A stretch of 64,000 nt of DNA from a virus. Its lineage: Duplodnaviria > Heunggongvirae > Uroviricota > Caudoviricetes. Below the pieces are notes generated by a model. It saw only the letters and a program-made list of their open reading frames with translations, was not told the origin of the DNA and did not search any database. The translations under genes and the position numbers were made by a program. Numbering within the stretch: position 1 is the stretch's first letter; each line of letters begins with the position of its first letter. Shown here piece after piece: positions 4,743 through 57,361 of the stretch. Location of the stretch: the IMG/VR virus record IMGVR_UViG_2740892441_000001, one strand, 5' to 3'.

Positions 4743-4838
4743 AGATCCCTCTAAAACACACAGAGCGCGTCCATGCGCTCTAAAACAACTTGTTTACTGC
4801 ATCTGCTAACCAACTTGTTTTCTGGTGTGTCTAATTAG

Positions 4839-4936
4839 GTCTGGGCATGTCTTACTAAGCCTGCTTCCGTATATATTTAATAAGTTACTTATTATTTATA
4901 TATACGGAAGCAGGTCTTTAAATAACGTCCCAGACC
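4839..4936. repeat. Long near-perfect palindrome (CCTGCTTCCGTATATAT ... ATATATACGGAAGCAGG) with outer GGTCTGGG/CCCAGACC arms
   Basis: Read directly; lies between stop of 4939-5205 gene and the terS promoter region; a second copy of the same arm sequence is at ~35979-36037. Confidence 0.7.
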
Positions 4937-4938
4937 GA

Positions 4939-5205
4939 TTACATCACCAGTAACTTCGCTTTGGCTCGACCTAAAGTGGTTAACCCAAGAGTCCGGCGGT
5001 GATAGCGATTGTCACTGCGTTGGCGCGTATGCCCTTTCTCCACCAGCCCCTTTTTTATCAGAGCGCGAATTGAGAACTGGATACTTTGCTTTGTTGTCTT
5101 GTACGGCAAAACTTCAAGCAATTCGTCCAGATCAAGTAGATGACCTCGCTCATAACCGAGATTGAGCGTTTTGATGATGTCCTTTTGTTTGTCGGTTAAC
5201 GTCAT
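4939..5205 (-). CDS. Small putative DNA-binding protein (winged-helix-like)
   Basis: 88 aa, basic C-terminus; first gene downstream of the 5215-8112 operon. Confidence 0.45.
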   Translation of the reverse strand: MTLTDKQKDIIKTLNLGYERGHLLDLDELLEVLPYKTTKQSIQFSIRALIKKGLVEKGHTRQRSDNRYHRRTLGLTTLGRAKAKLLVM

Positions 5206-5214
5206 GGCAAATCC

Positions 5215-6105
5215 TTATGCCGGTAAAGCAATTTCTAACGGTTTATCCAAAGGTTGTTTGTCGAATGCCAGCAGTGGCAGCGTGTCAGGCAGTCGACGAC
5301 CAAAGTCAGGGTTTCGATACACACCATACAACGGAGACGTAAAGCTCAGGTTGTGAATGTCCTTGAGCAGCTTCACAATGCTGGCCTCGTCCACCAGACT
5401 GTCGGCAATGTCCTGAATCGTCGTGCCACGATTCCGCCCAGCTTTTGCCAGGGAACTGTTCTTGTGGTAGTCCGCCACCAGATCACGCAGTGCACGGCGA
5501 CGACGTGACTCGCTCATTGCGAACAACTCTTTGACGATCGCCTCGTTATCACCCGGGTCGGAGCGGAAATGGCGCTGGAACACACGCAGTGCACTTTCAT
5601 AGCTCTTCGGTCGCTCAGGGCGGATGAACTTGAACCCTGCTTTCATGGCGAAGGGATTGTATTTGCTCATCGAGGATTGGATCTCAATGATTGGCCGGTC
5701 ATGCATCCTGCTAACCAGGTTAATCATTCGATAAGAGACGCCTACGCCACGGTACTGAGTATCCACAACTGAGCGGCTGATCACCGCAAAGTTGTTATTC
5801 ACGTACCGGCCCCAGTACTGGTTAGCCACGGTGGTATTGGTGGTTGGTTTCAACTTAGGAAACATGCGATGGCGAGGTGCCAGCAGAAGTTTCGGGTAAG
5901 CCATAACCACGACGCCCACCAGACGGTCATCCAGTTCGCAGCGATAGTATGTTGGCGCGAAAGGTTTGCCGTCTGTTTTGTAGTGAAGCGACTTAAGAGC
6001 GTGCCAGTCCTCTACAGTTCCCTTTGTGACAGTCATTCGCTCCAGAAAGTCCAGATGACGCGGAAACTCTTCAGGGCGGTAGCGTTTAATGATGATGTCC
6101 GTCAT
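5215..6105 (-). CDS. Hypothetical protein (possible acyltransferase-like fold)
   Basis: 296 aa; stop/start overlap with upstream ATPase gene implies operon; weak GNAT-like segment RCELDDRLVGVVVMAYP. Confidence 0.5.
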   Translation of the reverse strand: MTDIIIKRYRPEEFPRHLDFLERMTVTKGTVEDWHALKSLHYKTDGKPFAPTYYRCELDDRLVGVVVMAYPKLLLAPRHRMFPKLKPTTNTTVANQYWGRYVNNNFAVISRSVVDTQYRGVGVSYRMINLVSRMHDRPIIEIQSSMSKYNPFAMKAGFKFIRPERPKSYESALRVFQRHFRSDPGDNEAIVKELFAMSESRRRRALRDLVADYHKNSSLAKAGRNRGTTIQDIADSLVDEASIVKLLKDIHNLSFTSPLYGVYRNPDFGRRLPDTLPLLAFDKQPLDKPLEIALPA

Positions 6106-6767
6106 GAATGGACCTCATCATAACTACCATTGTGATATTCCACCTTCACGCGTTCTTTGTAGTGCTTGGTGATCTGCATATCCGGGCGCAGCGCGTTCTT
6201 CAGGTCTTCGTGAGTCGTCGCCACCATTACCGTCGCACCAACCTTTCGAGCGGCACGCTGGAGGTTAGATGCCACAACCTGAGCGGTTACACGGTCTAGA
6301 ACAGCACCGAACTCGTCAGCAGCCCACACTTTAGCGCCTGACTCAATCAGTTTGGCAATCTTGAGACGATATTTCTGACCGTCTGACATTTCAGAAGGCT
6401 TGCGAACAAACAGATATGCATCGTTCAGACCTGCCATAGATAACAACCCAAGCGCATCACTGGTAGTTTTGCCCAGTTGGTCAATGACGTTAACCTCATT
6501 ATCGAAGGTAAAGTCATCAATAGAAGCTACAGAAAGCCCTTCATCCTTCATCTGGCGTTGCAACTCGCGCAACACAACGGATTTACCTGAACCGGATTGG
6601 CCGGTGATGTACACCACATCGCCCTGCTTCACTTCCAGCTCCAGATTGTCGTAAAGCGTCCACTCTTTTTCGTCCAGGCCAAGCCCGAACGACTCAGCGA
6701 TTTCCAACGTGCGCGTGGTTTTATTTACGCGTGTCTGAAACGATACGTTGATGATGTATTTGCTCAT
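6102..6767 (-). CDS. ABC-type ATPase domain protein (soluble)
   Basis: Walker A GQSGSGKS, ABC-signature-like MSDGQKYRL, Walker B VWAADEFGAVLD, H-loop-like ATTHED. Confidence 0.65.
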   Translation of the reverse strand: MSKYIINVSFQTRVNKTTRTLEIAESFGLGLDEKEWTLYDNLELEVKQGDVVYITGQSGSGKSVVLRELQRQMKDEGLSVASIDDFTFDNEVNVIDQLGKTTSDALGLLSMAGLNDAYLFVRKPSEMSDGQKYRLKIAKLIESGAKVWAADEFGAVLDRVTAQVVASNLQRAARKVGATVMVATTHEDLKNALRPDMQITKHYKERVKVEYHNGSYDEVHS

Positions 6768-7432
6768 GCAGCCATCTCCCCGGAAGAGATCTTCTCCGCA
6801 TATGCCACAAATGCGTCTACCCCGCTTTCTCCCGTCATTTCTTCCATGTGGGCAAGCAAATCACCAACAACAATGGCAGAGCCAGCAGGGAGCGTTTTAA
6901 AGCCCAATACGTCGATAACACGTACTTCTTCCGCTGCAACTTCACGACTGATCTCGGTGTGTTCATCCTTCTGTCGTTTAGTTTCTTCGCCCAGATCGAT
7001 AACTAGCGAGTCGGTGTCCATTTCTTCTGTCATGCTGCCAACGAGAACATTCAACTCCCGCTCTTCAAAGCCGAAAACCTCGATATCGTCCAGAACAAGC
7101 GACTCAAGTTCTTTCTGTAGCTTAATTGCATCGTAATCAATGCTGGCAAGTCGGTTATCTTCAAGGCGCTTCGCACGAACCTCGTCATCACTGAGATCAT
7201 CGCGAACAATAACCGGTACGCGCTCAAGTCCAGCAAAAATTGCAGCCTCACGGCGGCCGTGGCCAGTAATAATTACGTCGTTCTTATCGACCGTAATTGG
7301 CTGGTCAAATCCGCGCTTTTTAATGGCTGCGGCCAGATCTCGGATCTGCTGTTCATCATGCTTTTTGGCATTCATCTCATAGGGAATAAGATCTGCCGGG
7401 TCGCGATATACGATTTCAAACTTTTTGGTCAT
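6764..7432 (-). CDS. ParB-like nuclease domain protein
   Basis: ParB N-terminal-like motif ITGHGRREAA...VPVIV; start set at MTKKFEIVY (ATG overlapping upstream stop). Confidence 0.6.
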   Translation of the reverse strand: MTKKFEIVYRDPADLIPYEMNAKKHDEQQIRDLAAAIKKRGFDQPITVDKNDVIITGHGRREAAIFAGLERVPVIVRDDLSDDEVRAKRLEDNRLASIDYDAIKLQKELESLVLDDIEVFGFEERELNVLVGSMTEEMDTDSLVIDLGEETKRQKDEHTEISREVAAEEVRVIDVLGFKTLPAGSAIVVGDLLAHMEEMTGESGVDAFVAYAEKISSGEMAA

Positions 7433-8112: not shown

Positions 8113-8194
8113 TTTATTGCTACAATCAACTAAGTAATTACTTACTTATTATAATAGCCAAATAACATACAAAAGGCACTAAGGAAAGAGGTTT

Positions 8195-9754
8195 ATGACT
8201 GTTCGGATTGTATCTAACGCAGTAAATGCGCTTATTTCTGGCGCAGATGACAAGGTAAAGCAACTGGTGCAACAGATGTTGAGCTACGAAGTCGAGACTG
8301 GCGACTGGAAAGGCACAAGCACGATGTTCAACTGGAGTAAAAACTCGTTCCCTGCTGGCTTTGCCAAGCCTGTAGCGGCGAACTTGAACAAGGCGGGCAT
8401 CAAATGTGTTCATATCCGCAAAGACAAAGCCCCGGCGCTTGGAAAGCCAAATCCGGCGGTTAACCCATTCCCATACAATCCTGATTATGCGTATCAGGAT
8501 CAGACTGTGGAAACGCTAGTTCGCGAGGGAATGATGATTGCGCAGATCGCTACTGGTGGCGGAAAATCTAATGTTGCCTGCAAAGCAGCTGCACGTATCG
8601 GTCGAATGACATTATTTTTAACAACCCGCTCTGTTCTGATGTTTCAGATGGCCGAAAACTTCCAGAGATCCATCGACTACCGCGCCGAAAATGGCGAACC
8701 GTGGTTAAAAGACCAAAAGGTTGGAGTAATTGGCTCGGGTGAGTTCCAGGTATCGCGACATATCAACGTTGCTACAGTTCAAACTCTTGCAAGTTTCCTC
8801 GAAGAACCACCACGCGATGCAACACCAGATAAGAAAAGCTACCACCTCAAACGTCGGGAGTTGGTGAAACGCTTCCTTTCAAGTGTCTCTCTTCTTATTC
8901 TGGAAGAGGCGCATGAGTCTTCAGGCTCTAATTTCTATGACATTGCCAGATTATGTGCGAACGCAGACTATCGCCTGGCGCTTACGGCAACGCCGTTCAT
9001 GAAGGATTCTACGGAAGCCAACATGCGTCTGATGGCTGTGGCCGGGCGAATTGAAATAAAAGTCACGGAAAAGTACCTGATTGATAAAGGCATTCTGGCA
9101 AAGCCATACTTCCTTTATCATAAAGTTGCCTACAAACCGGACGAGGTCAGAATCAAGGCAGAACTTGCTAACAAACACCTCAATTTTAGAGTAGGTATGA
9201 GCACTGCCTACCAAAAGGCTTATCAGTTGGGGATCGTGTATAATTTGGGACGTAACGAGGCCATTGTGCGCGAAGCATTGCTCTATAAGCAACACTCTCT
9301 CAACTGCATGACTCTGGTTCGTCTTAAACGCCACGGGCAAATCCTGATGGAGATGATGAAGGAGTCCGGTCTTAGAGTTGACTTCATCTATGGGGAATCG
9401 AACCAGGCGACAAGGCAAGCAAAGCTGAACAGTTTAGCGTCTGGTGAAATAGATGTTTTAATAGGCTCGACTATTCTGGATGTCGGTGTTGATGTGCCAA
9501 GCGTTGGTGCGGTCATTCTTGCTGGTGGCGGGAAAGCAGAAGTTGAAATGAGACAACGTGTCGGTCGTGGCTTACGAGCCAAGAAGAATCAGGCAAACGT
9601 GTGTTTTATCACTGATTTCATTGACATTAGCAACAAATACCTGTTGTCTCACTCTTATGAGCGAAAACACATCATCGACACTACACCTGGCTTTGCAGAA
9701 GGTGTATTGCCTATTGATGGCGCATTCGATTTTGGAGTTCTGAAACGAGATTAG
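8195..9754 (+). CDS. Superfamily-2 DEAD/DEAH-box helicase
   Basis: Motif I IATGGGKSN, motif II ILEEAHE, motif III LALTATP, motif VI RQRVGRGLRA; RBS AAGGAAAGAGG. Confidence 0.8.
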   Translation: MTVRIVSNAVNALISGADDKVKQLVQQMLSYEVETGDWKGTSTMFNWSKNSFPAGFAKPVAANLNKAGIKCVHIRKDKAPALGKPNPAVNPFPYNPDYAYQDQTVETLVREGMMIAQIATGGGKSNVACKAAARIGRMTLFLTTRSVLMFQMAENFQRSIDYRAENGEPWLKDQKVGVIGSGEFQVSRHINVATVQTLASFLEEPPRDATPDKKSYHLKRRELVKRFLSSVSLLILEEAHESSGSNFYDIARLCANADYRLALTATPFMKDSTEANMRLMAVAGRIEIKVTEKYLIDKGILAKPYFLYHKVAYKPDEVRIKAELANKHLNFRVGMSTAYQKAYQLGIVYNLGRNEAIVREALLYKQHSLNCMTLVRLKRHGQILMEMMKESGLRVDFIYGESNQATRQAKLNSLASGEIDVLIGSTILDVGVDVPSVGAVILAGGGKAEVEMRQRVGRGLRAKKNQANVCFITDFIDISNKYLLSHSYERKHIIDTTPGFAEGVLPIDGAFDFGVLKRD

Positions 9755-9756
9755 TT

Positions 9757-10035
9757 ATGAGCGAAAAGAAAACAACTTATTGTCAGGTAGCATTGACTGA
9801 TAAGGCCAATGACAAACTGGGAAAATTTCAAATGAAACTAAAAGAAAAAAACATCAAAATGTCCAAGGCTGAAGTTATCAATACCATTCTGGAGACGATG
9901 ACGATGGCTGAATTTGACAAGGTTTCATCTGCCGTTGGCGTCTCTGCTAAGGCTCGTGAAAAAATCATGCGCATCTATGAGAACTCTAATATGACAAAGG
10001 AAGACCTAGAACAAATTCTAAGCAAACTGCCATAA
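9757..10035 (+). CDS. Hypothetical small protein, coupled to helicase
   Basis: 92 aa ORF starting 2 nt after helicase stop. Confidence 0.5.
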   Translation: MSEKKTTYCQVALTDKANDKLGKFQMKLKEKNIKMSKAEVINTILETMTMAEFDKVSSAVGVSAKAREKIMRIYENSNMTKEDLEQILSKLP

Positions 10036-10177
10036 CATTTCACATTCCCTCCATCCGCCAATTCCAAGATGTGCTTACTTGTAAAAGGAGCACATCAATT
10101 GATGTGGCAGAGAATGAATTTAATCAAGACAAACATTGAATGATTAATAGACTACGATAGTGTCCAACAGGGCATTC

Positions 10178-10200
10178 TCATGTGACATTTGTCACATTTT
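10178..10200 (+). terminator. Rho-independent terminator-like hairpin (CATGTGACA..TGTCACATTTTT)
   Basis: Perfect inverted repeat followed by T-run, downstream of 9757-10035. Confidence 0.5.
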
Positions 10201-10287
10201 TAACCGCATAAGTCTCCGGCTGAAAAAAGTTCTTGATTGGCTGAATGATATTTGTAGGCTTATCAATGTTTAGAGCCGGAGGTGTGA

Positions 10288-10830
10288 ATGGGTGTACTTG
10301 ACATTGATAGTAATTACTTAAGTGCAAGGCGAATAAAGGAATGTGTTCATATCTATTGTAAATCAAAGCAGTCTTGTTTAGAAAAGCAGGCGTACCTAAC
10401 ATCTTCTCAAAAAGGAGAGCACAAACTCATCAAATATAAACTAAAGGCTTCGCGCAAAGATCGTTATGAGCACTATATATATGTAAAGGATATTGAAGGC
10501 ACCAAGACAAATTGCGGTATTATCTTTTATCCCTATGATATATCAAGACTGTTCTCCATTATGAAATCCTGTGTCGGCGTAGCTCCAGGTAAATTAGAGT
10601 TGCATTCAAACTTATACGATTACCCAAATGCTCAAAAACAGATAAACGATAGCACTTCGCCCTATGGATTTTCGTTTCTCTTTAAGAATCATCTCGCATT
10701 GAAAGATTTCATCGAAAAATACAATGAAGGAATAATATCAGGCGAATTAAATTTCAACAAAATCTGCGGAGATATAAAAAGGGACGACCTCTTAATAGAT
10801 ATTTACAATAGAATCCAAGTTAACGTGTAA
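10288..10830 (+). CDS. Hypothetical protein (low-GC accessory gene)
   Basis: 180 aa ORF, AT-rich codon usage distinct from neighbours. Confidence 0.5.
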   Translation: MGVLDIDSNYLSARRIKECVHIYCKSKQSCLEKQAYLTSSQKGEHKLIKYKLKASRKDRYEHYIYVKDIEGTKTNCGIIFYPYDISRLFSIMKSCVGVAPGKLELHSNLYDYPNAQKQINDSTSPYGFSFLFKNHLALKDFIEKYNEGIISGELNFNKICGDIKRDDLLIDIYNRIQVNV

Positions 10831-10857
10831 CCATCCATTAATCATAGCCAGACAAAT

Positions 10858-11277
10858 ATGAAAGTAACAAACCTAATTATTCTGACACTAGCCACATCAC
10901 TAATTGGGTGTTCATCTTCATCTATATCTGTTTCAAAGGCAAAGTATGCGCCTCAAAGCAGAATATTTAAATATCAAACACCACATGAGTCTAGTCTAAC
11001 AATAGTTAGAGACAAAGGGCTGGTTGGTTCTGGATGTAACGCTTCCATATTCATCAATGGAGAAACGGCAGCAAAATTGGAACCTGGTGAAAAAGCAACT
11101 TTCTATCTTAATGAAGGAGATTGGATCGTTGGGACATCAATTGAAAGTTCAGGTCTTTGCGCATTTAACCCCTCTAGGATGGAGCGAGAAATAAAACTAA
11201 AGCAAGGCGACGCGAAAACATATCGGGTTTTCACTACCTGGGATGGTACAATGGATATATTGCCAACCACTTTATAA
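10858..11277 (+). CDS. Putative lipoprotein
   Basis: N-terminal signal peptide MKVTNLIILTLATSLIGCSSS with lipobox LIGC. Confidence 0.6.
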   Translation: MKVTNLIILTLATSLIGCSSSSISVSKAKYAPQSRIFKYQTPHESSLTIVRDKGLVGSGCNASIFINGETAAKLEPGEKATFYLNEGDWIVGTSIESSGLCAFNPSRMEREIKLKQGDAKTYRVFTTWDGTMDILPTTL

Positions 11278-11806
11278 TGATATGACGACGAAAGACATCA
11301 CCTACGGTGTGCCAGCAGAAGTCTGGCCTCGAGATTACACTAACGTTGAAAAACTACTGATGTTCTGGCGCAGAGAACAAATTCCTGTAAGGGCCACTCT
11401 AGAAGATGGCCAGGCGTTTTGCATGTACGTTTATGGCCTCATGCCATCTCGTAACAAAGTTGACCTTTGCCCAGCCCCTTTTGACAAAGAAAATCGTATA
11501 AGGCTCCCACTTGAACGCATTAGTACAATTGAATCAGGTGTGGTTGACAGTATCGCTCACGATTTCAAAGGTCGATTAACAGTTCACCCTGATTATGTCG
11601 ATAATCGGCCATCACGCCGCGATTTTTTTGCTATTTGCAACCAAGCCTATAAAGCAAACAAATCTATAAGGGTGTACATGGCGGATGGCCGTGAAATTGA
11701 GGGGGTGTCAGCAGGCGCAGATGCTTGTCAGGTTACACTACGTGTCGAGAACGGTAGAAAAATAGTTATTTTGTTCGATTGGGTTGAACGAATTTTGCCT
11801 TTTTGA
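11243..11806 (+). CDS. Hypothetical protein
   Basis: 187 aa ORF; true start may be the internal Met at ~11281. Confidence 0.45.
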   Translation: MVQWIYCQPLYNDMTTKDITYGVPAEVWPRDYTNVEKLLMFWRREQIPVRATLEDGQAFCMYVYGLMPSRNKVDLCPAPFDKENRIRLPLERISTIESGVVDSIAHDFKGRLTVHPDYVDNRPSRRDFFAICNQAYKANKSIRVYMADGREIEGVSAGADACQVTLRVENGRKIVILFDWVERILPF

Positions 11807-11809
11807 GTT

Positions 11810-12118
11810 ATGAAATCGATATTGTTACCACCATTATTTTTACTTTGCTCAGTTGCAGCAAATGCAATGGACTATAAGCCTGTCATTCAGTCGCTGATGA
11901 ATGACGTGTGCTCAACGTCTCAGAATGTATCAGTTTGCATGTATCAATTTTCGGCAGCCGTAAAAGCAGGAAAAGCGATAGGTGAGAATGTGGAACTGTG
12001 TAAGAAAGTGGCAAATGAAGAACGAGCAATGTTGGATTGCGAATCTAGCGAGTCATCGGCACAGTTCGTTGATGCGCTATTTGACACCAATCGTAAGGCT
12101 GTAGAGTCTGTCCAATAA
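11810..12118 (+). CDS. Small secreted protein
   Basis: Signal peptide MKSILLPPLFLLCSVAANA; 102 aa. Confidence 0.55.
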   Translation: MKSILLPPLFLLCSVAANAMDYKPVIQSLMNDVCSTSQNVSVCMYQFSAAVKAGKAIGENVELCKKVANEERAMLDCESSESSAQFVDALFDTNRKAVESVQ

Positions 12119-12337
12119 ATCTATAAGGTTAATAACCGGCTAAGTCCGGTTATTATTTTTCACATCACTTCTTTATATCTATAAATCAAACAACCTAAAT
12201 ATATAAGGTCGAAAGCCGGAATCGATTATTTATTTAGGGAACACCTTCGACGATCTCGCTTTTATTTCTAGGACTTTCATCCCTGCAAAAAAATTTAAAA
12301 AAACACTTGCAATCTTTTTTCGCGTATCGATAATTGA

Positions 12338-12399
12338 ACTCGTCGAAAGCGAAGATGCTAACGACAATAAATTTTAAATTTACATAAGGAAAAATTATC
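12338..12399 (+). promoter_or_regulatory. Sigma70-like promoter (TTGCAA - 17 nt - GATAAT) for 12400-13050
   Basis: Hexamers read directly upstream of RBS AAGGAAAAA. Confidence 0.5.
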
Positions 12400-13050
12400 A
12401 TGGCTAACATTATCATTTCTAAAAAATCCATCATTGAAGCTGCTTCCATTGTATCCGACGAGCTGCGCGAAAAAGCAGATCTGGCAACTCAAACATATAA
12501 CGAACATTATAAAAATGGTACGCACACTAAAGCAGACAAAGCAAATATGCAAGCTGCGACCACTAAACTTGCTTACTTCATCAACAACGTTGTAAACGCT
12601 GTTGAAGACGAAAAATTATGCTCTGTTTTCTACTATGCGATTAAAGCAAGCAAACAAGCGCCAGAAGTATTTTTCCGTGATGCAATGACTAATAGTTATT
12701 CACTGGAAAAACTGGTTTATCTGGTTAAATCTATTAAAGCTGGTAAATGCGTTTATTCCGTCGCTGATATGTCAGGATCTCGTGTATTCGCTTTAATCGA
12801 TATGATTAACGACGAGATCGACACGTTCACCAATGGCGCTGTTTTCGATTTAATGAATGAAGCTAAAAAAGCGTGTGAGATTAAATTGGACGCTGGCTAT
12901 ACTCAAGCCAACCAGTTGATCAATCTTTGCGAACGTCTCGGACTTGTTGAAAAAGTCAAAGGAGCTGGGAGCGCAAAAGCTGGTACTCAGCAATATCGCT
13001 TTATCAAGAATGATTTCTACAATTATCTAGCTGATGCTTTCAAAGCGTAA
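12400..13050 (+). CDS. Hypothetical protein
   Basis: 216 aa ORF with good RBS and own promoter; hairpin GCGCCCACTATGGGCGC at 13064-13080 downstream. Confidence 0.6.
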   Translation: MANIIISKKSIIEAASIVSDELREKADLATQTYNEHYKNGTHTKADKANMQAATTKLAYFINNVVNAVEDEKLCSVFYYAIKASKQAPEVFFRDAMTNSYSLEKLVYLVKSIKAGKCVYSVADMSGSRVFALIDMINDEIDTFTNGAVFDLMNEAKKACEIKLDAGYTQANQLINLCERLGLVEKVKGAGSAKAGTQQYRFIKNDFYNYLADAFKA

Positions 13051-13097
13051 TTAATGGAATCAAGCGCCCACTATGGGCGCTTTAAAGGAGCTTTAAA

Positions 13098-13301
13098 ATG
13101 GTCAGCTATGACAAGATCCGCGCGGAATATCGCGCAAAGTATCGCGCTTACAAACTGGAATTAATCGATGATTTGATCGCGCAACGCGACCAATTAAATT
13201 TTACGTTTTCTGATTTGCTTAACAGCAAGCGAGATTGCAAGCGCAAACGTGAATATTTACGTTTAAGCGCATTAATCGGAAAACTTCAAAATTCTATTTA
13301 A
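13098..13301 (+). CDS. Hypothetical small protein
   Basis: 67 aa, RBS AAAGGAG upstream. Confidence 0.5.
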   Translation: MVSYDKIRAEYRAKYRAYKLELIDDLIAQRDQLNFTFSDLLNSKRDCKRKREYLRLSALIGKLQNSI

Positions 13302-13321
13302 TTTTTTTAAGGAGCTTAATC

Positions 13322-13549
13322 ATGTTTGTTCTTATCGCTGGCGTTAACGTCCACAATGAATATTGTGTTAATGATATTGCTGGGATCGCTGGTTACGCTG
13401 GATCTGTTGAGCTTATAGATGAAACGACGCGCAAAATTGACTTATTGAGCGACCAGGAGCGAAAAAAAGCAGACGTGAACGACGCTGATATATTTTTAAT
13501 GTTAAAAGCGTTTGTAGAAATGGGATTTGAAATCAGTTTACATAAATAA
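13322..13549 (+). CDS. Hypothetical small protein
   Basis: 75 aa, RBS AAGGAG upstream. Confidence 0.5.
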   Translation: MFVLIAGVNVHNEYCVNDIAGIAGYAGSVELIDETTRKIDLLSDQERKKADVNDADIFLMLKAFVEMGFEISLHK

Positions 13550-13553
13550 AATC

Positions 13554-13578
13554 GAGCGCCCACTATGGGCGCTTTTTT
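13554..13578 (+). terminator. Rho-independent terminator (GAGCGCCCACTATGGGCGC + TTTTTT)
   Basis: GC-rich hairpin followed by T6; same stem as hairpin at 13064-13080. Confidence 0.8.
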
Positions 13579-13601
13579 CGTTTCCAATACTCCCACCATA
13601 A

Positions 13602-13628
13602 CGCGCCATCATTGGCGCGTTTTTTATT
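13602..13628 (+). terminator. Second tandem rho-independent terminator (CGCGCCATCATTGGCGCG + TTTTTTATT)
   Basis: Hairpin plus T-run read directly. Confidence 0.75.
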
Positions 13629-14029
13629 GTCTTTAACTCACTCCAACAACATAAAAATAAGCGCCAAAATAACGCCATAGACGCGATTTTATATCCTCGC
13701 CAGTACATACCCATTACTTAACACATTAACGCGCTTAAAACGCGTTATATTGCGCTATAGAGTATGGTTAATCGTTGGCTTTTAGTCTTGCTTTATGATC
13801 CGCGTTTATTTGTCGGCGCGGATCGGCATTTTGTTTTGTTCCGTATCCGCTCGCGTATTATGTGCGCGTGATTTTTCACATAATCACACCACTTAATCAC
13901 GTATGTGATTATGCTACGAAAGAAATCTGGATGTCTCAGGCGACGAAAGTCATCATAATTTTCCCCGCTCACCTGTCCGACAACCGCTGGTTGGATTCAA
14001 CCAGCTTCCCGATGTTTTTTCTATATAAA

Positions 14030-14160
14030 GGCGAATGCAGCCGTTTCCCGAAAAAATCCTGGCCGTTTCCCGTCGGCTCATGAATGCGTTCCTCGCCGTT
14101 TCTGAAAATTTCCCTGCGGCAGCTGGTGGCTATAGAGAAAGGGCCGTTTCTGGCCCTCTT
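14030..14160. repeat. Array of about 4 direct repeats of (G)CCGTTTCC(C/T)GAAAA-type units
   Basis: GCCGTTTCCCGAAAA, GGCCGTTTCCCGTC, GCCGTTTCTGAAAA, GGCCGTTTCTGGCC read directly; same repeat family recurs at 17640-17800. Confidence 0.65.
14131..14156 (-). terminator. Terminator-like hairpin (GGGCC..GGCCC + T-rich) after gene 14166-14648
   Basis: Minus-strand hairpin followed by TTTCTCTAT. Confidence 0.45.
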
Positions 14161-14165
14161 CTCAG

Positions 14166-14648
14166 TTACACGCCATCAAGGATGTGGATGCGGTTGCTTG
14201 CGTATACATTCAGCATAAAGTTAGCGCAAAACAGTTTCCATGTATCAACGCCAGCGGTATACGTAATGTTTTTGCATTTAATCGCATTGTTGGCGATCCG
14301 CATCCCCTGCGATACTGCTTCATCGTCGGAAAATTTGAACGACGATTGAGTTTTAATCCAGACAGAAATCTGCGTAGCGAACTCAATCAGCTTGGACTGG
14401 CAGAATCGCCCGGAGCGCACCGGAAAGACGAACGTTCCGAATCCAGAATTTACCACATACGCTTTCTCAAATACCCGCGAGTAACGACGATTGCCAATGA
14501 TGTCGCGTGCAATAATGCATTTTTCTTGTGCTGACAGTTCTACCGTCTCATTGTCGCGCCATGCACCAAGTACTCGTTTTTCAATGTCAGAGAACGTTAC
14601 AGCGATATTGCCATGTGCGGGTGCGTTTACAGTAGCGATAAAATTCAT
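14166..14648 (-). CDS. Hypothetical protein
   Basis: 160 aa; preceded by conserved promoter/leader element and RBS AAGGAAA. Confidence 0.55.
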   Translation of the reverse strand: MNFIATVNAPAHGNIAVTFSDIEKRVLGAWRDNETVELSAQEKCIIARDIIGNRRYSRVFEKAYVVNSGFGTFVFPVRSGRFCQSKLIEFATQISVWIKTQSSFKFSDDEAVSQGMRIANNAIKCKNITYTAGVDTWKLFCANFMLNVYASNRIHILDGV

Positions 14649-14725
14649 GATTATTTCCTTATCGTAAATAACAAATTGTTTTCTTGTTGGTGTTAATTAT
14701 CGTTGTACGAATAAGGCGTCAAAGT
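14649..14725 (-). promoter_or_regulatory. Conserved promoter/leader element (TTGACG ... GATAAT ... AACACCAACAAGAAAACAATTTGTT)
   Basis: -35/-10-like hexamers plus the conserved leader motif shared by more than 10 genes in the window. Confidence 0.5.
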
Positions 14726-14823
14726 GGAAAGTTGCGGTAGCCGGACGGGAACAGGTGGGTTTTTCGGTTGCCTGGAGGTAAGAGGTTGGTGTTTTTAGCC
14801 TGCGGGAAACAGGATGGTCATTT

Positions 14824-15134: not shown

Positions 15135-15469
15135 GAGCATATCCTCACTGCGTAAACATATTGTTTTCTTGTTGGTGTAATTATCGCAGTGTAGATAAGG
15201 CATAAAAGAAGTTAATACAGGCTGAATACACAAGAAAGGTTCTGGAAGTTGATAGCCAGGTTTCAAACTAACCTTCGGTTATTAAAAGTCATTTAAGACC
15301 ACCAATGCTGGTGGCCTTAATAATTATCGCCCGATTACGCTAAGGATCTTTTCCTCAACTGATTTGTTGTTGCGACTAAACTGCCTTGCGTATCTGATGA
15401 CAGAAGAGGCGTTTTGCTTTCTGACCATCTCGGCTCTTTCCTTCAGGCGTTTCTTGAAATCGCCCATAT

Positions 15470-15862: not shown

Positions 15863-15986
15863 GATGGTTTCCTTATTAAGTATTAAGTTGCTTCAGTGAA
15901 AGCATTTTCACAAATCAGATAAGGCAGAAAACAAATTATTATCGGGCATAAGAAAATGGCGCGGTTTACGCGCCATTTAAAGAGGA

Positions 15987-16820: not shown

Positions 16821-16973
16821 CACAACTCCGTAAACAACTTGTTTTCTCAATGGCGTAAATAATACCAGTAAGAAAACGGCTACAAAGCATATTGATCAGG
16901 TGCATGAGCGATATGCAGGTTCTTCCCTGCGGCTATAGAGAAATTAAGCCAGCAATGCTGGCTTTGGTTGGGG

Positions 16974-17303: not shown

Positions 17304-17639
17304 AAATCAATCCTTAAACAACATGTTTTCTTATTGGTGTTATTATCGCAATAACGCATAGGCGAAAAAGGATTTTATTCCGGTGAATGTGGTTTTGGCA
17401 GTGAGTTTTCAGGTTCAGTACCGAGTACACTTTTTACATTATTCTGATTTAGTAGCCGAAGGTGGCTGGTGGGCAGAATAATCATCTCCCCGAAAACCTA
17501 CTGAAATCGATTGTGACCCGCTGACTGTCTGGCACAATTACGCTGTAGTTGGGCATTCAGAGGGAATCCAGCGGTAAGTAAGTTCGCCTGCACGTGAGCG
17601 CCTCTCTTCTTCCCGCACATTACAGGTGGATAGCCGCAA

Positions 17640-17949: not shown

Positions 17950-18500
17950 GTTTCAACCTCTCTATAGGCGTTAATGCTCACTCCTTCCAGAACGTTCTAT
18001 ACGGCAACTATTTCTGTTGGTGAATTGGGTGTGTTGTTTTCTCTGTCGGTGTATGTGGTTTCGTTCGTTTTGCGGTGGTTCTTCTATAGGGTGTTCTCGT
18101 CGTTTTGGTGATTGTTCTTCTCCGTCTATGGAGTAATGGCAGGTGGGCGATTCCTTTCGTTATTGTGTTTGAGTTGTTTGTCTGGAGTGCGTGAAGGGCT
18201 TTTGTAGTTATTCGTGTATTGGGTAATGGCGTTTCCCGTGATTGTTCTGTTTCGTGTCTTTTGGGATTGAAGAATCCTTGCGGTAACAGGCTTCGTTGGG
18301 GTTTCAGTGATTCTGGTGTTTCTTCGCTGTTTGGGTAATGGCGTGTCGTGGGTATCGCGCGTATGAATGTTTTCGGATTGCCTGTGAAAGTTAGGTTGGT
18401 TGTCCGGTAGCCTGGGAAGAAGAGGTGGGTCTTTTCGGTAGCCTGCCATAAAGAGGTTGGTTGTTTTTGGGAATGGCATATGCGTTATTTAGTTGTTTTG
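17950..18500. repeat. Strongly GT-skewed non-coding region built from degenerate tandem repeats
   Basis: Plus strand almost entirely G/T; repeated TTGGGTAATGGCGT units (~18135, ~18220, ~18335) and GGTAGCCTG units; overlapping ORFs have implausible T/P/Q/N-rich composition. Confidence 0.6.
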
Positions 18501-18866
18501 TTATGCCTGAAAATAAGTTGTTTATATGGTTATGTAACGCAACGGGAACGATTTTGAGCGTGTGTTTTTGTTGGTAGTGTGTTGGGTCGTCTGTGGTGAA
18601 AATTGGACGCTGTGGCGCTGTCTGCTGCGTAGGATTGCGGGTATAAGAAGTAATGTGTGAAAACGTCAATTTTTTAGACCAAATCGGGTGAAAGCGTTGA
18701 CGTTTCGTTGATCTGTTATTCAGTTGTTTTCTTGTTTGTATAAACAACTATAACCTATTGATATTTAAGGGTGTGATTGCAGGTATGGAAGGGGAGTAGT
18801 GGCGATCAACGGATTCTTATAGAAAAGAATCAAATTGTGACCGCCATTATCAATAAGTTGCAACCG

Positions 18867-20119: not shown

Positions 20120-20271
20120 TCCGAAACAATTTGTTTTCTTATGTGGCTTATTATCTCAATCAACAAAAGGCAGAAAACAAATTGTTTTAGGGTTTGTTAA
20201 AGTCAGAAGGGATTGTGTCTATATGAAAATGCCCAGCGTATTGCCGGGCATTGTGAAGAATGGTTGCTTAA

Positions 20272-24008: not shown

Positions 24009-24028
24009 TACTGTTTATATATACAGTA
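24009..24028. promoter_or_regulatory. LexA (SOS) box TACTGTTTATATATACAGTA
   Basis: Perfect CTGT-N8-ACAG palindrome 19-38 nt upstream of the UmuD'-like start, overlapping a TATACT -10-like hexamer. Confidence 0.8.
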
Positions 24029-24120
24029 TACATGAAAGAAACCCACTTAGTGCAACCGATCGAGACTCTTCACCAAACAAAAATATTTTTCTCAAATAAG
24101 AAAAGGCAGAAAACAAATTG

Positions 24121-24150
24121 TTTAAGGCCACTAGTTGTGGCCTTAATGGG
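24121..24150. terminator. Hairpin AAGGCCACTAGTTGTGGCCTT (terminator-like) after gene 24161-24685
   Basis: Stem-loop read directly; same family as 28300-28325. Confidence 0.4.
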
Positions 24151-28238: not shown

Positions 28239-28357
28239 TCTTAACTCCGTTGTTTTCTAGTTGTGGTTATTTTCACAAATAAGAAAAGGCAGAAAACAAT
28301 TTATTCAAGGCCACAACTTATGGCCTTTATTTATTCATGCCGAAGGATTTGTAGCGT

Positions 28358-28738: not shown

Positions 28739-29442
28739 CAGCGCACCTCACCATCTTTATGGCTGGAGTTAACTTCCGCCATTAAATGTCTGACGTAATC
28801 GACAAGAGAGCCACCTGGTGGAATCTGGCATTCCTCAACTAACTGGAAGTAGATATCAGCAGCATTACGTGTATTGCTACCCGCGCATATTCTTTCTTCC
28901 CGAAGTGCATGAAGCTCGTTGATCAAACGGTCACACTCTCCGTTACGCTGATCCACAACAGCCTCAAGTTCTGCGACGCGTTCACCTGGCGTCTTACCTT
29001 CTTTGCGTTGGATGGTAACGACGAAATCGCCCATTTCAGGGACGTTGTAATCCAGCTCAAGGTAGTTTTTGGCACCGCTGCGGACGAACTCACCCGCGAA
29101 CATGGTGGCGAACATCGCAGAGGCCATTGTGCCGTTGAAAAGTGACTCCAGATCTAACGGAGTCCCGGCAGCCAGAGCCTCTTTTGCTGTATCCATTGCA
29201 TCCATGAACCGATCAAACTCATTGGCGCGCTTTTCCAGGTCTTTCCATTGCTCGCTCCAACGTTTGGCAACGAAGTCTATGAATGTTTTCGCGGATTCAT
29301 CAAAATCCCCCTCAAACTTAACGATGCCTTTATCAATAATGATCTGGCCTACCGCATCCTCTGCATAACCTTTCAATGTAAACTTGAAAGGAAAATCGGA
29401 ATGGCCTGTGACGTTAAAATGCTCTAACTGGAGGTTGCTCAT
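28738..29442 (-). CDS. Hypothetical protein
   Basis: 234 aa ORF, start overlaps downstream gene. Confidence 0.5.
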   Translation of the reverse strand: MSNLQLEHFNVTGHSDFPFKFTLKGYAEDAVGQIIIDKGIVKFEGDFDESAKTFIDFVAKRWSEQWKDLEKRANEFDRFMDAMDTAKEALAAGTPLDLESLFNGTMASAMFATMFAGEFVRSGAKNYLELDYNVPEMGDFVVTIQRKEGKTPGERVAELEAVVDQRNGECDRLINELHALREERICAGSNTRNAADIYFQLVEECQIPPGGSLVDYVRHLMAEVNSSHKDGEVR

Positions 29443-29503
29443 GTGTTTTTCTCTTATCGTTTAGTTACTACATTCTTACACAAATTAAGTAAGTATTTAC
29501 CTA

Positions 29504-32815: not shown

Positions 32816-32954
32816 GTGTTTTCCTTAATGCTTAAACAAGTTGTTTTCTTATTGGCTTTATTGTGATGTGACATAAAAGGGGAGCAAGCTAAACGTAAAG
32901 GTGCAAACTCTCTATTTCGGTCAACGAAACACAAGGGCCAAATGGCCCTTGTCA

Positions 32955-33538: not shown

Positions 33539-33631
33539 GTGTTTTCCTTTTGTTATTTGTCAAAACAAGTTGTTTTCTAGTTAAATAAATTGCTTACGCA
33601 AAGACGGTCAATGCATAGGCACTAACAGCCG

Positions 33632-44527: not shown

Positions 44528-44627
44528 GTGTTTTTCCTTTTTTGATGTGTTTAAACAAGTTGTTATCTTATGTGTTTAAACAAGGCTTACAAATCAAAGA
44601 TAAGGTGGGGATATACCCCACCATATG

Positions 44628-46942
44628 TCAGATTTTGCAGGCTCCGTCGCACTCATCTTCTGGCTCGACGGCTACAGCTTGCGTAAGTGGATTCTGCGCT
44701 TCGTCGTCATCACGCTTTCCTGCACCATCTCTGGTGTTGTGGTAGTAAAGCGTTTTAACTCCCATCTTGTAGGCGAGAAGCAAATCTGACAGTAGCGTCA
44801 TCATTGGGACTTTATCGCCTTCAAAGCGAGAAGGGTCATAGTTGGTATTGGCTGAAATAGCCTGGTCAAAGAACTTCTGGATGATCGCCACCTTTGTCAG
44901 ATAGCCGCGGTTGTCCGGCATATCCCACAGGTATTCATACTGTTCCTTCAGTTTTTCAAACTCAGGCACGACCATCTTGACGATGCCGTCCTTAGAAGAT
45001 TTCACTGACACCGGGCCACGAGGCGGTTCGATGCCGTTGGTGGAATTAGTGATCTGGCTGGAAGTCTCGCATGGCATTTGTGCCGTCAGTGTGGAGTTGC
45101 GAAGGCCGTATTTTGCAATACGTTCACGCAGTTCTTCCCACGGCATCTTTAACTCAAAGTTGGTTTCGCCGCTTTCGTCTAATGAAGAACGGTAATGGTC
45201 GATCGGCAACTGACCAATTGCGTATTTGGTCTGCTCAAACCAGTCACACTCACCTTTTGCTTCAGCAAGTCGGCAGCTGGCGTCAAGAAGGTAATACTGG
45301 ATAGCTTCGAACGTTTCATGCACCAGTTTATTGCCAGCGGTATCAGAATAACGAACGCCATTCTTTGCCAGGTAATAAGCAAAGTTGGTTACACCAATTC
45401 CCAGGCTACGACGAGCTTTGGCAGGCACTTCGGCTGCCTCCATCGGATAGTCTTGATAATCCAGTAACGAATCCAGTGCAGCAACGGCATAGAACGCCAC
45501 CTCTTTAAGAGACTCCAGTGAACGGATGGCTCCGAGGTTAAAAGCGGATAAAGTGCATAGCGCGATCTCACCGTTCGGGTCGTCGGTAAATGCCAGTGGA
45601 CGGGTGGGTAGAGTGATCTCCATGCACAGGTTTGACTGGCGAACAGGTGCAAGAGCAGGAATGAAAGCGCCATGCTCGTTAATATGATCGACGTTCGCAA
45701 TATAAATTCGGCCCGTGGACGCTCGTTCCTGCATCAGAGATGAGAACAGCTCAATGGCAGGTACTGACTTCTTGCGAATTGAATCATCGGCTTCGTATTT
45801 ATGGTACAGCTTTTCAAACAGATCCTGGTCTGTGAAGAAGGCTTCGTACATATCAGGCACATCATGCGGCTGAACAGAGTGATGTTCTCGCTTCTGACGA
45901 GTCGACGGTACATTAGACGGTTACTCATGACGCCGTAATCAAGATGGCGAACGCGGTTTTCATCAATACCACGGTTATTTTTCACCACCAGCAGACTTTC
46001 AACCTCAAGATGCCAAATCGGGTAAAACGCTGTTGCTGCGCCACCACGAACACCACCTTGCGAACAAGATTTAACAGCCGTCTGGAAATGCTTCAGGAAT
46101 GGAATAACTCCGGTATGGGTGGCTTCACCATTGCGGATCTCACTGCCCAGCGCACGGATACGGCCAAAACCAATACCAATTCCAGCACGACGTGAAACGT
46201 AGTCGATAATTGCGGCTGAAGCTGCACTAATCCCTTTCAGACTATCGCCAGACTCAATCAGCACACAACTGGAGAACTGACGGGTTGGAGTACGGACGCC
46301 GGCCATGATTGGTGTGGGCAGAGACAGCTTGAACGTACTTGTAACGTCATAGAAACCTTTGACCATCTCCATACGTGTTTTGCCCGCGCAGTCGTCTTCC
46401 CAATTCTGGAACAGACACATGCCCACCAGCATATAGATATGTTGCGGGCCTTCGTGAATCTCACCAGTAACACGGTTTTGAACGAGGTATTTGCTTTGCA
46501 ACTGCACCGTAGCTGCATAGCCAAAAAGATCGTCACGTTTCGGCTTAATGTAATTGCCGAGTTCTTCGATCTCTTCAAATGAATAATGTGTCAGCAAATC
46601 CTTGTCATAAACGCCCTTGTTAACGTTCTTGACAATGTGTTGGTAGAAGTTCGGATAGTCGTAACGACCGAAGGCATCTTTGCGGATTTTAAAAATGTTC
46701 AGGCGGGCAGCCACCTGCGAGTAATTTGGTGCATCTGGTGAGATCAAATCAGCGGCAGATTTAACCAAAGCCTCATGCAACTGGCTGGTGGTAATCCCAT
46801 CAAAAATGCTGGTCGCAGCTCCCATTGCTACAGCGGATGCGCTTACACCACGAATGCCTTCTACGCCATACATTACGACGCGGTTGTATTTTTCTTCGGA
46901 TAACGGCTCTGTTTGGCCGTTACGTTTTACGATGCTTATCAT
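44628..46942 (-). pseudogene. nrdA: Ribonucleotide reductase class Ia alpha subunit, split by a frameshift near 45860-45900
   Basis: N-terminal ORF 45734-46942 and C-terminal ORF 44628-45860 (ending ...ECDGACKI) together are about the length of E. coli NrdA but in different frames. Confidence 0.88.
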
Positions 46943-52288: not shown

Positions 52289-52290
52289 TT

Positions 52291-53539: not shown

Positions 53540-54220
53540 TGCATTTGCCTGTTTTACTTATCCCAGTTATCCACTGGATAGATCCAAATAAGAGATCCCA
53601 AGTAAGATCAAATAGAAGATCCAAAGAGATCCCCGATCGCCTCTAGCCGTTGCGGTTACTGGTCTGAAAGGGTGTTGCCATCCACTATGGAGAGCAAAGA
53701 AACCTCTGTAGAGAGCTGAATAACCGCTATGAAGAGTAAAACAACCACTCTGGAGAGCTGTATATATCCACTGTAGAGAGTAGAGCACATTGTCTTTTAT
53801 GGATAACTTAATGACTTAATTCTTCATTAACATACTGATATACATAGATATATTTTAAACTCTACTCTTAGTCATGATTCTTATGTCCTTAAATATCCAC
53901 AGAAGAGTAGAGTTACCTGTTCTTGAAATCCTCTGATTTTTATCCACAGGCCCGATCCAGTAATTCAGATCACAAAGAGAACCAAAGAGACCCATAAAGA
54001 CCCAATAAGATCCCCGCCCACCTCAAACCGTTGTGCCATCTGCCTTCAGACATGATCGATATCCACTATAGAGAGCGAATAATCCACTATAGGGAGCAAA
54101 GCAACCACTATAGAGAGGAGAAAAACCACTATAGACGGTAGGATAACCGCTGTGATGAGTGCTACTATCCACTGTAATCAGCAAAGGCCACCAAAGCCGT
54201 CGAATAACAAGAGACATTTG
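53540..54220. promoter_or_regulatory. Plasmid-type replication origin region: two arrays of 22 bp-spaced iterons, DnaA boxes, GATC clusters and an AT-rich segment
   Basis: Iterons (A/T)TCCACTATAGAGAGC-like at ~53681-53780 (5 copies) and 54061-54182 (6 copies); perfect DnaA box TTATCCACA at 53940-53948 plus near-matches at 53566-53574 and 53893-53901; 6 GATC in 53570-53640, 4 in 53960-54060. Confidence 0.75.
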
Positions 54221-54222
54221 GA

Positions 54223-55278: not shown

Positions 55279-55282
55279 CCCA

Positions 55283-55762: not shown

Positions 55763-55766
55763 GCTA

Positions 55767-56314: not shown

Positions 56315-56490
56315 GCTGCCACCTCTTTGATTACATCAAATGCTGAATTAAATACGAGCACGATAGCCAAAGCGTTTATGACTACATCGTTCACCGGGGA
56401 AAAGACTTTACGAATGACACCAGTGAAAATGCAGTCGATGACAAAAGCTATTGACACGATGAGTAACAAGTATTCAATAAAAATCTTCAT
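56314..56490 (-). CDS. Small membrane protein (58 aa), translationally coupled
   Basis: Hand-translated MKIFIEYLLLIVSIAFVIDCIFTGVIRKVF...; stop overlaps start of 55979-56314. Confidence 0.3.
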
Positions 56491-56529
56491 GATAGGTAGA
56501 TACTAACTTATATAAATTTTACTGTAAAC

Positions 56530-56805
56530 TCACTCAAAAGTGCTGATGCTTAAAATACGCTCAAGATGTGCGGCATCTTCATCACTGATTTGTTGAGTCT
56601 CTTCTACGTACCAACAGTTGCCGTTATGCCAACAAACACCATCATCATCAACCATCACTGAATCAGCGTCATAACCTGTATATCCAACGAGAATACGCTG
56701 GATCAGCGCGTCAGTTTCTTCGTCGTTAAGGCCATCGGCTTTGACCATAAAAAGCGGAAACACGTCATAGACAGTGCTGGTAACGATTCGAACTAAAACT
56801 CTCAT
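56530..56805 (-). CDS. Hypothetical small acidic protein
   Basis: 91 aa ORF. Confidence 0.45.
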   Translation of the reverse strand: MRVLVRIVTSTVYDVFPLFMVKADGLNDEETDALIQRILVGYTGYDADSVMVDDDGVCWHNGNCWYVEETQQISDEDAAHLERILSISTFE

Positions 56806-56860
56806 GTGTTTTTCCTTTTGTGGTTAGTGTTTACTTATTTTGTTAGTTATGAATAGGCGA

Positions 56861-57286
56861 TCAATCTTCTTGTTTAGGGAAAAACTGTTCAATAACTCTG
56901 TCAACGGCTGTGTCTATATGGAGTAGATGCCACACAACCATATCTTTGCTTCCCATGCCTTGTGTGAATATCACGTCATACTTACGCCATGCGCAGTGGA
57001 ACCAATATGCTGAGTCATCAATTGGTAAATCCTCTCCCGCCTCTTTGAAGTATTTCAGCAGCATTGCTTGCTCTGCCGTTGGCGTTGGGCCTATTTCCTG
57101 AGCGTACATACGGATAAATCGCTGCCAGTCTGTCTCGTCGGGGGTTGGATCTGGTGGGGTCATTTCTGCGATAGCGTTTCGTAGCTGATGTGCCCAATCA
57201 GGTTCAGGAAAGCCTTTTGATACTTCATCATCAATAACATCCAGAGCCACGTTTGCGGCATCGTAGAGTTTCTTAATAGCTGTCAT
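56861..57286 (-). CDS. Hypothetical protein
   Basis: 141 aa; conserved promoter element at 57302-57335 upstream. Confidence 0.5.
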   Translation of the reverse strand: MTAIKKLYDAANVALDVIDDEVSKGFPEPDWAHQLRNAIAEMTPPDPTPDETDWQRFIRMYAQEIGPTPTAEQAMLLKYFKEAGEDLPIDDSAYWFHCAWRKYDVIFTQGMGSKDMVVWHLLHIDTAVDRVIEQFFPKQED

Positions 57287-57333
57287 GTTTTCTTATCCTT
57301 TTAAACAAATTGTTTTCTTAATAAGATAATTGC

Positions 57334-57361
57334 GATAAAAAAGGCGTCCAACTGGACGCCT
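57334..57361 (-). terminator. Rho-independent terminator (AGGCGTCCAGTTGGACGCCT + TTTTTT)
   Basis: Hairpin plus T-run on minus strand after SPFH gene; same stem family at 58481-58500 and 62081-62098. Confidence 0.75.

Follow-up and report, generated by a model that had tools for sequence, protein, structure and literature searches.

The 64,000-nucleotide (nt) stretch analysed here (hereafter the window), from the IMG/VR virus record IMGVR_UViG_2740892441_000001 (Caudoviricetes), carries a recurrent 17-base-pair (bp) pseudo-palindromic motif at its promoters. We propose, with a probability of about 0.6, that this motif is a DNA operator through which a single repressor, encoded by the same mobile element, would silence many transcription units in the plasmid state. 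By megablast, the window is 96-98% identical to Escherichia phage Cyrano (OV696614, the pLF82 plasmid of E. coli LF82) and ~78% identical to Salmonella phage SSU5, and it is therefore a portion of an SSU5-like phage-plasmid. These phage-plasmids, which include pHCM2 of S. Typhi and pLF82/Cyrano of adherent-invasive E. coli, are widespread in Enterobacteriaceae. In the literature searched, we found no description of how they silence their phage genes as plasmids, and none of this motif or its regulon in SSU5-like elements; a text search for the motif sequence matched primers only.

Enrichment and form of the motif

A first-pass annotation, made from the letters of the window, had listed 14 places where promoters share a -10 plus leader element. 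Reading the sequences, we found the element at 14/14 of them. The window has 10 matches to AACAANTTGTT for 0.20 expected, 18 to AGAAAACAA for 1.0 expected, and 22 to AGAAAACAANTTGTT with at most two mismatches for 0.83 expected. A 27-nt matrix made from 15 seed sites gave 19 matches at or above the threshold of 12 bits, against 0.24 in dinucleotide-preserving shuffles, which confirms that the motif is enriched over a shuffled background, by an estimated 40- to 80-fold. Read against the list of open reading frames (ORFs) of the window, all matches are intergenic.

The motif is a 17-bp pseudo-palindrome, AGAAAACAAnTTGTTTA, i.e. AGAAAACAA-n-TTGTTTA (as a duplex, AGAAAACAAGTTGTTTA). The palindromic core described in the annotation is indeed a dyad, AACAA-n-TTGTT, whose central base is free: in the matrix, the information content falls from 1.4-1.9 bits at the flanking positions to 0.0 bits at the centre. 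Its arms are unequal, with 9 conserved nt on one side (AGAAAACAA) and 5-7 nt on the other (TTGTTta).

Two classes of copies can be distinguished. Those in gene orientation, directly 3' of the -10, are termed D, whereas U copies are inverted (17-mer aAACAAnTTGTTTTCTGCC), lie over the -35, and usually come directly after the terminator hairpin of the preceding gene. A second, inverted U copy is present at four promoters. It corresponds to the inverted half previously placed ~35 bp upstream, and 33 bp separate the arms. In three non-orthologous promoters, exactly 51 bp separate the centres of U and D, a spacing also seen in SSU5 and other relatives, and the long arms of these pairs point toward the promoter core. 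A 25-bp spacing between centres occurs at two places, the tandem pair of terS and the head-to-head pair at 18480-18522. The D core lies 8-11 nt from the -10 and at a variable distance from the ATG (12-45 nt). The latter is mostly 12-26 nt, against the 15-25 nt upstream of start codons given earlier, and reaches ~45 nt at terS. Two of the listed sites, at 15905-15935 and 24094-24120, do contain the element, but as U sites whose own D position is degenerate.

Promoter type

Where the -35 is poor, the promoters have a TGn extended -10: TGCGATAAT (15155, 17317), TGAGATAAT (20125), TGTGAAAAT (28244, 15926), and TGGTATTAT (16833). The promoter at 14670 lacks the TG and has instead a -35 TTGACG (TTGGAC in orthologues). 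This trade-off between TGn and -35 is expected of real sigma70 promoters, and we conclude that these promoters are of the sigma70 type, with either a TGnGATAAT extended -10 or a good -35. Hence, the idea that they are something other than plain sigma70 promoters does not hold for the promoters themselves. What stands is a shared extra element, which a binding site for a common regulator would explain better than plain promoter sequence does, given the free central base, the occurrence of both orientations at fixed positions, the invariant core within varying flanks, and the background expression in the lysogen (see below). Since most copies of the motif begin 8-11 bp after the -10, they would cover roughly +1 to +20 of the transcript.

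Conservation in related elements

The conservation set consisted of 80 related loci retrieved from viral contigs through the FljA-like gene of the window, together with SSU5, Cyrano, and a Klebsiella phage-plasmid. Of 86 loci of relatives, 77 contain the exact 15-mer, including some whose marker proteins are 54-66% identical. Relatives carrying the exact core include some in which the FljA-like identity is 54% and the Klebsiella phage-plasmid, as well as elements from Salmonella and other hosts. In the Klebsiella phage-plasmid, 11 copies have one mismatch or none, where 0.02 would be expected. One orthologous promoter, compared among seven relatives, retains its -35, GCGATAAT, and core, with a drifting spacer and with T, G, or A at the central position. 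Fourteen core positions are exact in relatives that are only ~70-80% identical overall. In the rest of Cyrano, the only copies are those that precede terS, parA, the helicase gene, and cobT, and the 26-kilobase (kb) structural operon contains no copy.

Expression in the lysogen

A published RNA sequencing (RNA-seq) study of LF82 reports the expression of Cyrano in the lysogen gene by gene, the median of the background being 9.8 normalised reads (PMC9928086, supplementary file 2). The genes behind D sites have 5-26 normalised reads, with the exception of the parA operon, at 50-89 (PMC9928086). The values are 7.1 for terS, 7.8 for cobT, 5.7 for CYRAN_58, 12.9 for nrdB, 7.0 for CYRAN_85, 7.1 for CYRAN_87, 7.5 for CYRAN_101, 12.8 for CYRAN_105, 12.2 for CYRAN_106, 6.7 for CYRAN_110, 25.5 for CYRAN_111, and 21 for the helicase. 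That apparently constitutive promoters are off in the lysogen fits with repression. Ciprofloxacin induces Cyrano 39-fold (PMC9928086).

A proposed dispersed operator regulon

We suggest the following model. Promoters used by the host RNA polymerase (sigma70) would carry the operator, to which a repressor encoded by the phage-plasmid would bind, probably cooperatively where sites are paired at 25 or 51 bp. Once bound, the repressor would prevent initiation or the escape of the polymerase from the promoter in at least a dozen separate transcription units, namely those of small accessory genes, nrdB, the tciA-like gene, and the late operon headed by terS, and, outside the window, those of the helicase, cobT, and parA. 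These units would be silent during plasmid maintenance and released together upon induction. Transcription starts, binding, and repression are the parts of the model that we infer.

One invariant operator on ~20 promoters would provide a handle on silencing in the plasmid state and would define a regulon. This regulon predicts that nucleotide metabolism, the helicase, the terminase, and many small genes of unknown function switch together, and the operator itself offers a bait sequence for the repressor.

Candidate regulators

Three proteins were ranked as putative binders: the small protein encoded directly after parA, then the FljA-like protein, and last the product of the gene at 9757-10035 (positions in Table 1). 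The first seems the most likely binder. By position and sequence pattern, its gene looks like that of a centromere-binding partner of the small ParA. The protein has a basic, AT-hook-like tail (PQGRPTRGK), a putative beta-strand (IKSRTMSxEDE), a helix, and the start of a putative helix B (FTRSDVIRAAI), a layout that would be that of the ribbon-helix-helix partition proteins of the ParG/omega type. The three named segments are invariant while overall identity drops to 48%, Klebsiella versions included, and the invariance of these putative DNA-reading segments parallels that of the operator. The parA promoter of Cyrano has a perfect D site (29256-29270) and is the only promoter with a D site that is clearly on in the lysogen, which is the pattern of negative autoregulation. 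No repeat cluster able to serve as a centromere was found beside parA. The gene is annotated as a RelE/ParE putative toxin; it has no match to a toxin family in Pfam. If this partition protein is the binder, plasmid segregation and phage silencing would be coupled in a single protein.

The FljA-like protein is modelled as two tandem domains of the Hfq/Sm type, with no helix-turn-helix. We found no published structure or fold assignment for the FljA family in the literature searched. Two segments of the family, DITYGxxAEVWPRDY and PSRRDFFxIC, do not vary even when true FljA proteins, at 40% identity, are included. The case for this protein is taken up with the alternative explanations.

The gene at 9757-10035 is strongly expressed in the lysogen (114; PMC9928086). 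Its product aligns in register with CopG by hhalign (E 0.017), its AlphaFold 2 (AF2) model is of low confidence (predicted local distance difference test, pLDDT, 55), and the residues that would face the DNA vary among relatives, whereas the motif does not. A motif-like sense sequence lying just after its ATG was considered as an autoregulatory site and rejected, as it is unconserved in diverged relatives. The helix-turn-helix protein CYRAN_45, named a putative repressor in the LF82 study (PMC9928086), was also rejected as the regulator: its own divergent promoter region has no copy of the motif, and its gene adjoins the integrase gene in a segment missing from the SSU5 annotation, although SSU5 keeps the motif. 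Co-variation or co-occurrence of the motif with candidate proteins is uninformative as a discriminator, because the motif is invariant and both the FljA-like protein and the 9757-10035 protein are found in every relative whose sequence reaches them.

Alternative explanations

The first-pass annotation had left the choice between a binding site for a common regulator and a conserved 5' leader structure. The former is the better explanation; the latter is not supported. The folds computed for eight leaders have energies of -1 to -8.6 kcal/mol, with z scores of ~0 in 6/8, and are not shared. Mismatches in the arms (e.g. ATGTT at 15155) are uncompensated, U copies lie outside the leader, and no Rfam family matches the window. 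We reject a structured leader because of these weak unshared folds, of the uncompensated mismatches, and of the lack of a match in Rfam. This leaves room for a protein binding the single-stranded leader, because of the FljA-like gene. The sense copies would then act in the mRNA, where the FljA-like protein would bind the A-rich/U-rich leader and block ribosome loading, the untranslated mRNA decaying thereafter. Transcripts would start at or just before AGAAAACAAnUUGUUUA, with the target 2-23 nt upstream of the Shine-Dalgarno sequence. We consider this alternative unlikely. In its favour, the protein is a full-length match to Flag1_repress with a tandem Hfq/Sm fold, and its Salmonella relative represses the translation of fliC. 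Its gene is core to all relatives, Klebsiella phage-plasmids included. To our knowledge, Klebsiella lacks flagellin, and the retention of an FljA-like gene there implies that its target should lie inside the phage-plasmid. The gene is expressed in the lysogen with a profile resembling that of a prophage CI repressor (PMC9928086). All D copies are sense-oriented and within the region that a ribosome would occupy, and the fliC leader of Salmonella and Citrobacter has an octamer, CAAGTTGT, just 5' of the Shine-Dalgarno sequence, the same place as in the motif leaders. Yet the fliC leaders score insignificantly with the matrix, the best of the Salmonella type reaching -2.8 bits, a value attained at ~1 in 1000 background positions, and in the lysogen it is the transcripts, not only the proteins, that are at background. 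Moreover, the motif keeps its position relative to the -10 but not relative to the ATG or the Shine-Dalgarno sequence; a palindrome whose central base is free is the signature of duplex recognition; and the inverted copies outside any leader, which are conserved as exact matches, fit the recognition of double-stranded DNA. Together with the occurrence of both orientations and the recurrence of the 25- and 51-bp spacings, these traits favour a site read in DNA over one read in RNA. It is similarly doubtful that the FljA-like protein is a global regulator that reads AGAAAACAAnUUGUUUA at the start of a dozen early transcripts, and perhaps DNA too. If it were, SSU5-like elements would hold their lytic and replication genes down largely post-transcriptionally, and the Salmonella FljA would be a domesticated phage-plasmid regulator, recruited along with the phage-type Hin invertase. 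Such a binder would represent a new class of phage regulators and make the origin of a textbook bacterial switch testable.

The remaining explanations concern the nature of the binder and of the repeat. A common host factor of Enterobacterales could bind the motif, which is identical in elements from many host genera; we know of no E. coli factor whose consensus matches it. The binder could also be a lytic-phase activator or a loader of antitermination, such as the ParB-like proteins or the winged-helix protein encoded at 4939-5205. This would suit the late terS promoter, which has poor -35 and -10 elements, two sites, and a leader hairpin. That hairpin resembles a terminator in the leader, in which case the structural operon would be controlled by antitermination. 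However, a site placed at +1 to +20 or on the -35 typifies repression rather than activation, and the ParB-like and winged-helix genes are silent in the lysogen (PMC9928086), making a binder of these kinds quite improbable. Finally, the repeat could be a promoter-terminator cassette, duplicated and spread among small accessory genes, whose identity would result from descent or recombination, as in the promoter-stem-loop repeats of the T4 type. Modules of ~70 bp are indeed alike between non-orthologous promoters (terminator hairpin, U, GCCTTTTnTTATTTG, TGnGAtAAT, aACACCAAyA, D), and they lie on either side of single small genes where the phage-plasmid is most variable. But the core is far better kept than the rest of the module, in which the central base and spacers drift, and it also occurs without the cassette in other contexts (terS, parA, helicase, nrdB, the non-coding region). 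We regard an origin by duplication as the explanation of the identity as very improbable indeed.

Several observations weigh against the operator regulon that we favour. A scan of the promoters for the plain -35/-10 sigma70 consensus called none; it misses them because their -35 elements are poor, and the assignment of the promoters rests on a reading of the extended -10 by eye. The asymmetry of the site, with an arm of 9 nt and another of 5 to 7 nt, is unexplained by a simple symmetric dimer. Silence behind the sites discriminates weakly because most of the phage-plasmid is silent in the lysogen anyway. The umuD-like gene, whose promoter has a U site only, is expressed in the lysogen (148; PMC9928086), although it has a promoter with a LexA box of its own as well. 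Searches with HMMER profiles and hhalign gave no significant match of the parA-adjacent protein to a ribbon-helix-helix fold. Lastly, the core, lysogen-expressed protein of the FljA family in the window keeps an RNA-level mechanism alive.

Catalogue of sites

The copies of the motif in the window and the genes of the candidate regulators are given in Table 1. The terS gene (4742-4110) is the first of the structural operon.

Table 1. Motif copies (D, gene orientation; U, inverted), associated promoter features, and genes of candidate regulators. Positions are those of the window unless Cyrano is indicated.
Feature	Positions	Strand	Remarks
terS tandem D sites	4784-4823	-	4809-4823 and 4784-4798, with a centre-to-centre distance of 25 bp; also present in SSU5 and other relatives
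terS leader GC-rich hairpin, AGAGCGCatggacGCGCTCT then GTGTGTTTT	4762-4781	-	between the double site and the ATG; kept in SSU5 and other relatives
Promoter module: -35 TTGACG, GATAAT, AACACCAACA, site AGAAAACAATTTGTT (14670-14684)	14670-14726	-	5' of gene 14648-14166; orthologous footprint seen
Promoter module: TGCGATAAT extended -10 and site (15155-15169, 1 mismatch)	15155-15211	-	5' of gene 15134-14853
U site over the -35 of the TGTGAAAAT promoter, gene 15862-15470	15926-15940	+	D position degenerate
Promoter module: TGGTATTAT extended -10 and perfect site (16833-16847)	16833-16889	-	5' of gene 16820-16509
Promoter module: TGCGATAAT and site (17317-17331, 1 mismatch)	17317-17373	-	5' of gene 17303-16974
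Inverted degenerate pair of sites	18480-18522	.	strong arms turned toward each other across 6 bp, with 25 bp from centre to centre; kept in SSU5 and others
D half-site (AGAAAACAA only)	18718-18732	-	5' edge of the conserved A/C-rich non-coding region
Complete cassette: U (20172-20186), GCCTTTTGTTGAT, TGAGATAAT, D (20125-20139)	20125-20186	-	centres 51 bp apart; 5' of gene 20110-19811
U site upstream of the umuD-like gene (23990-23601)	24108-24122	+	
Cassette: U (28291-28305), TGTGAAAAT, D half-site (28244-28258)	28244-28305	-	5' of gene 28238-27909
Perfect D site	32835-32849	-	19 nt before the ATG of gene 32815-32246
Perfect D site	33564-33578	-	25 nt before the ATG of the tciA-like gene 33538-33113; -35 TTGACC
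D site, 1 mismatch	44554-44568	-	26 nt before the nrdB ATG (44527-43385); ortholog kept in SSU5
Perfect D site	57304-57318	-	17 nt before the ATG of gene 57286-56861
Gene of 119-aa protein after parA	Cyrano 29975-30334		outside the window; parA at 29307-29975
FljA-like gene	11285-11806	+	full-length match to Pfam PF03614 (Flag1_repress), E 1e-83
Gene of small protein, CYRAN_117 homologue	9757-10035	+	ribbon-helix-helix-like pattern; weakest candidate

A perfect LexA box, TACTGTATATATAAACAG, is found at 24009-24028, directly upstream of the umuD-like gene, which encodes an S24 peptidase.

An A/C-rich non-coding region

The region at 17990-18760 (~800 nt) has, on its sense (minus) strand, 39% A, 30% C, 14% G, and 17% T. 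In global alignments it is 73-83% identical to that of relatives, with no codon periodicity of the mismatches and many indels that are not multiples of three. In a coding control, 265 of the 328 mismatches were at third positions and there were no indels. Since codon periodicity is lacking and indels are not in triplets, the hypothetical protein CYRAN_103 annotated there is probably spurious. The region contains 31-nt tandem repeats (18405-18466), four to five iteron-like copies of GCCATTAC(T/C)CCATACACGGAGAAGAAC, and three copies of the motif. Its possible roles are those of a lytic origin, a centromere, or a long non-coding RNA. We rejected the idea of a decoy RNA with many half-sites: only three motif copies are conserved, and the other AACAA strings result from base composition.

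Other features of the window

Following the annotation of Cyrano, the gene content runs from recombination and replication genes through nucleotide metabolism and many small genes of unknown function to the terminase and the first head genes. Almost every gene is on the minus strand, with the exception of a block at 8195-14349. The plus-strand block at 10000-14000 has a G+C content of 39%, against ~46% elsewhere. It includes the FljA-like gene, a lipoprotein gene, and several genes of unknown function, and its content differs among the window, Cyrano, and SSU5. The parB-like gene and uvsW diverge from an 82-bp region that has a perfect 12-bp palindrome, AAGTAATTACTT, at 8130-8141, adjoining a TATAAT, and that drives the lysogen-expressed operon containing the 9757 gene and the FljA-like gene. 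This palindrome may be the operator of another regulator.

The nrdA gene (44628-46942) is split into two overlapping ORFs at ~45869 by a 1-nt deletion relative to Cyrano, which is either a frameshifted pseudogene or a sequencing error. The recA/uvsX-like gene (58506-60845) encodes 779 amino acids (aa) in the window and in Cyrano, and 359 aa in SSU5, a difference suggestive of an intein or some other large insertion. Near the repA region, at 53756-53775, there is a partial LexA-like dyad, AGCTGTATATATCCACTG, with three mismatches to the box pattern.

Comparison with known systems

The early promoters of T4-type phages and their promoter-stem-loop (PeSL) repeats resemble the present modules in being repeated extended -10 promoters that follow terminator hairpins and flank small genes in a plastic region. 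The PeSL repeats serve a strictly lytic programme, without a repressor, and T4 repeats differ from those described here in lacking a palindromic element downstream of the -10. The control of fliC by FljA in the phase variation of Salmonella has in common with our system a family member encoded in the window, a leader target just 5' of the Shine-Dalgarno sequence, and the octamer CAAGTTGT in the leaders. However, FljA has one chromosomal target, whereas the sites here are many, some of them inverted and outside leaders, and the likeness to the matrix is insignificant.

Omega of pSM19035 and ParG of TP228 are small ribbon-helix-helix partition proteins that also repress promoters. As in the parA operon of Cyrano, a small ParA gene is followed by that of a small protein with a flexible basic tail, an operator lies in the par promoter, and a short repeat occurs in direct or inverted pairs at several promoters. 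The sequence and the length of the repeat differ, and here there are ~20 sites over a 108-kb phage-plasmid. The KorB/KorA system of the IncP plasmid RK2 has a palindromic operator present about a dozen times across the plasmid, at varied distances from promoters. KorB operators coordinate replication, maintenance, and transfer, as the operators here would coordinate such functions and lytic ones, and KorB is a helix-turn-helix protein of the ParB family able to act at a distance; the ParB-like genes of the phage-plasmid studied here differ in being silent in the lysogen. If the parA-adjacent protein is the binder, its nearest kin would be omega and ParG and, by its logic, KorB, all of them partition proteins with a second role as global repressors.

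Control of the P1 type was rejected. The late promoters of P1 have a conserved box at -22 and not after the -10. The 17-bp operator of the P1 repressor C1, ATTGCTCTAATAAATTT, is unrelated to AGAAAACAAnTTGTTTA, the usual site here is directly downstream of the -10, and tblastn revealed no homologues of C1, Coi, or Lpa in the window, Cyrano, or SSU5 (E > 1 at best). Hence, the motif is not a member of the C1 regulon. In both systems, however, asymmetric operators of 17 bp are scattered over the genome of a phage-plasmid, single or in inverted pairs, and overlap sigma70 promoters; through them one repressor controls, or here would control, many separate transcription units. The P1 record annotates both monovalent and bivalent C1 operators, and the C1 regulon is the closest functional analogue of the one proposed here.

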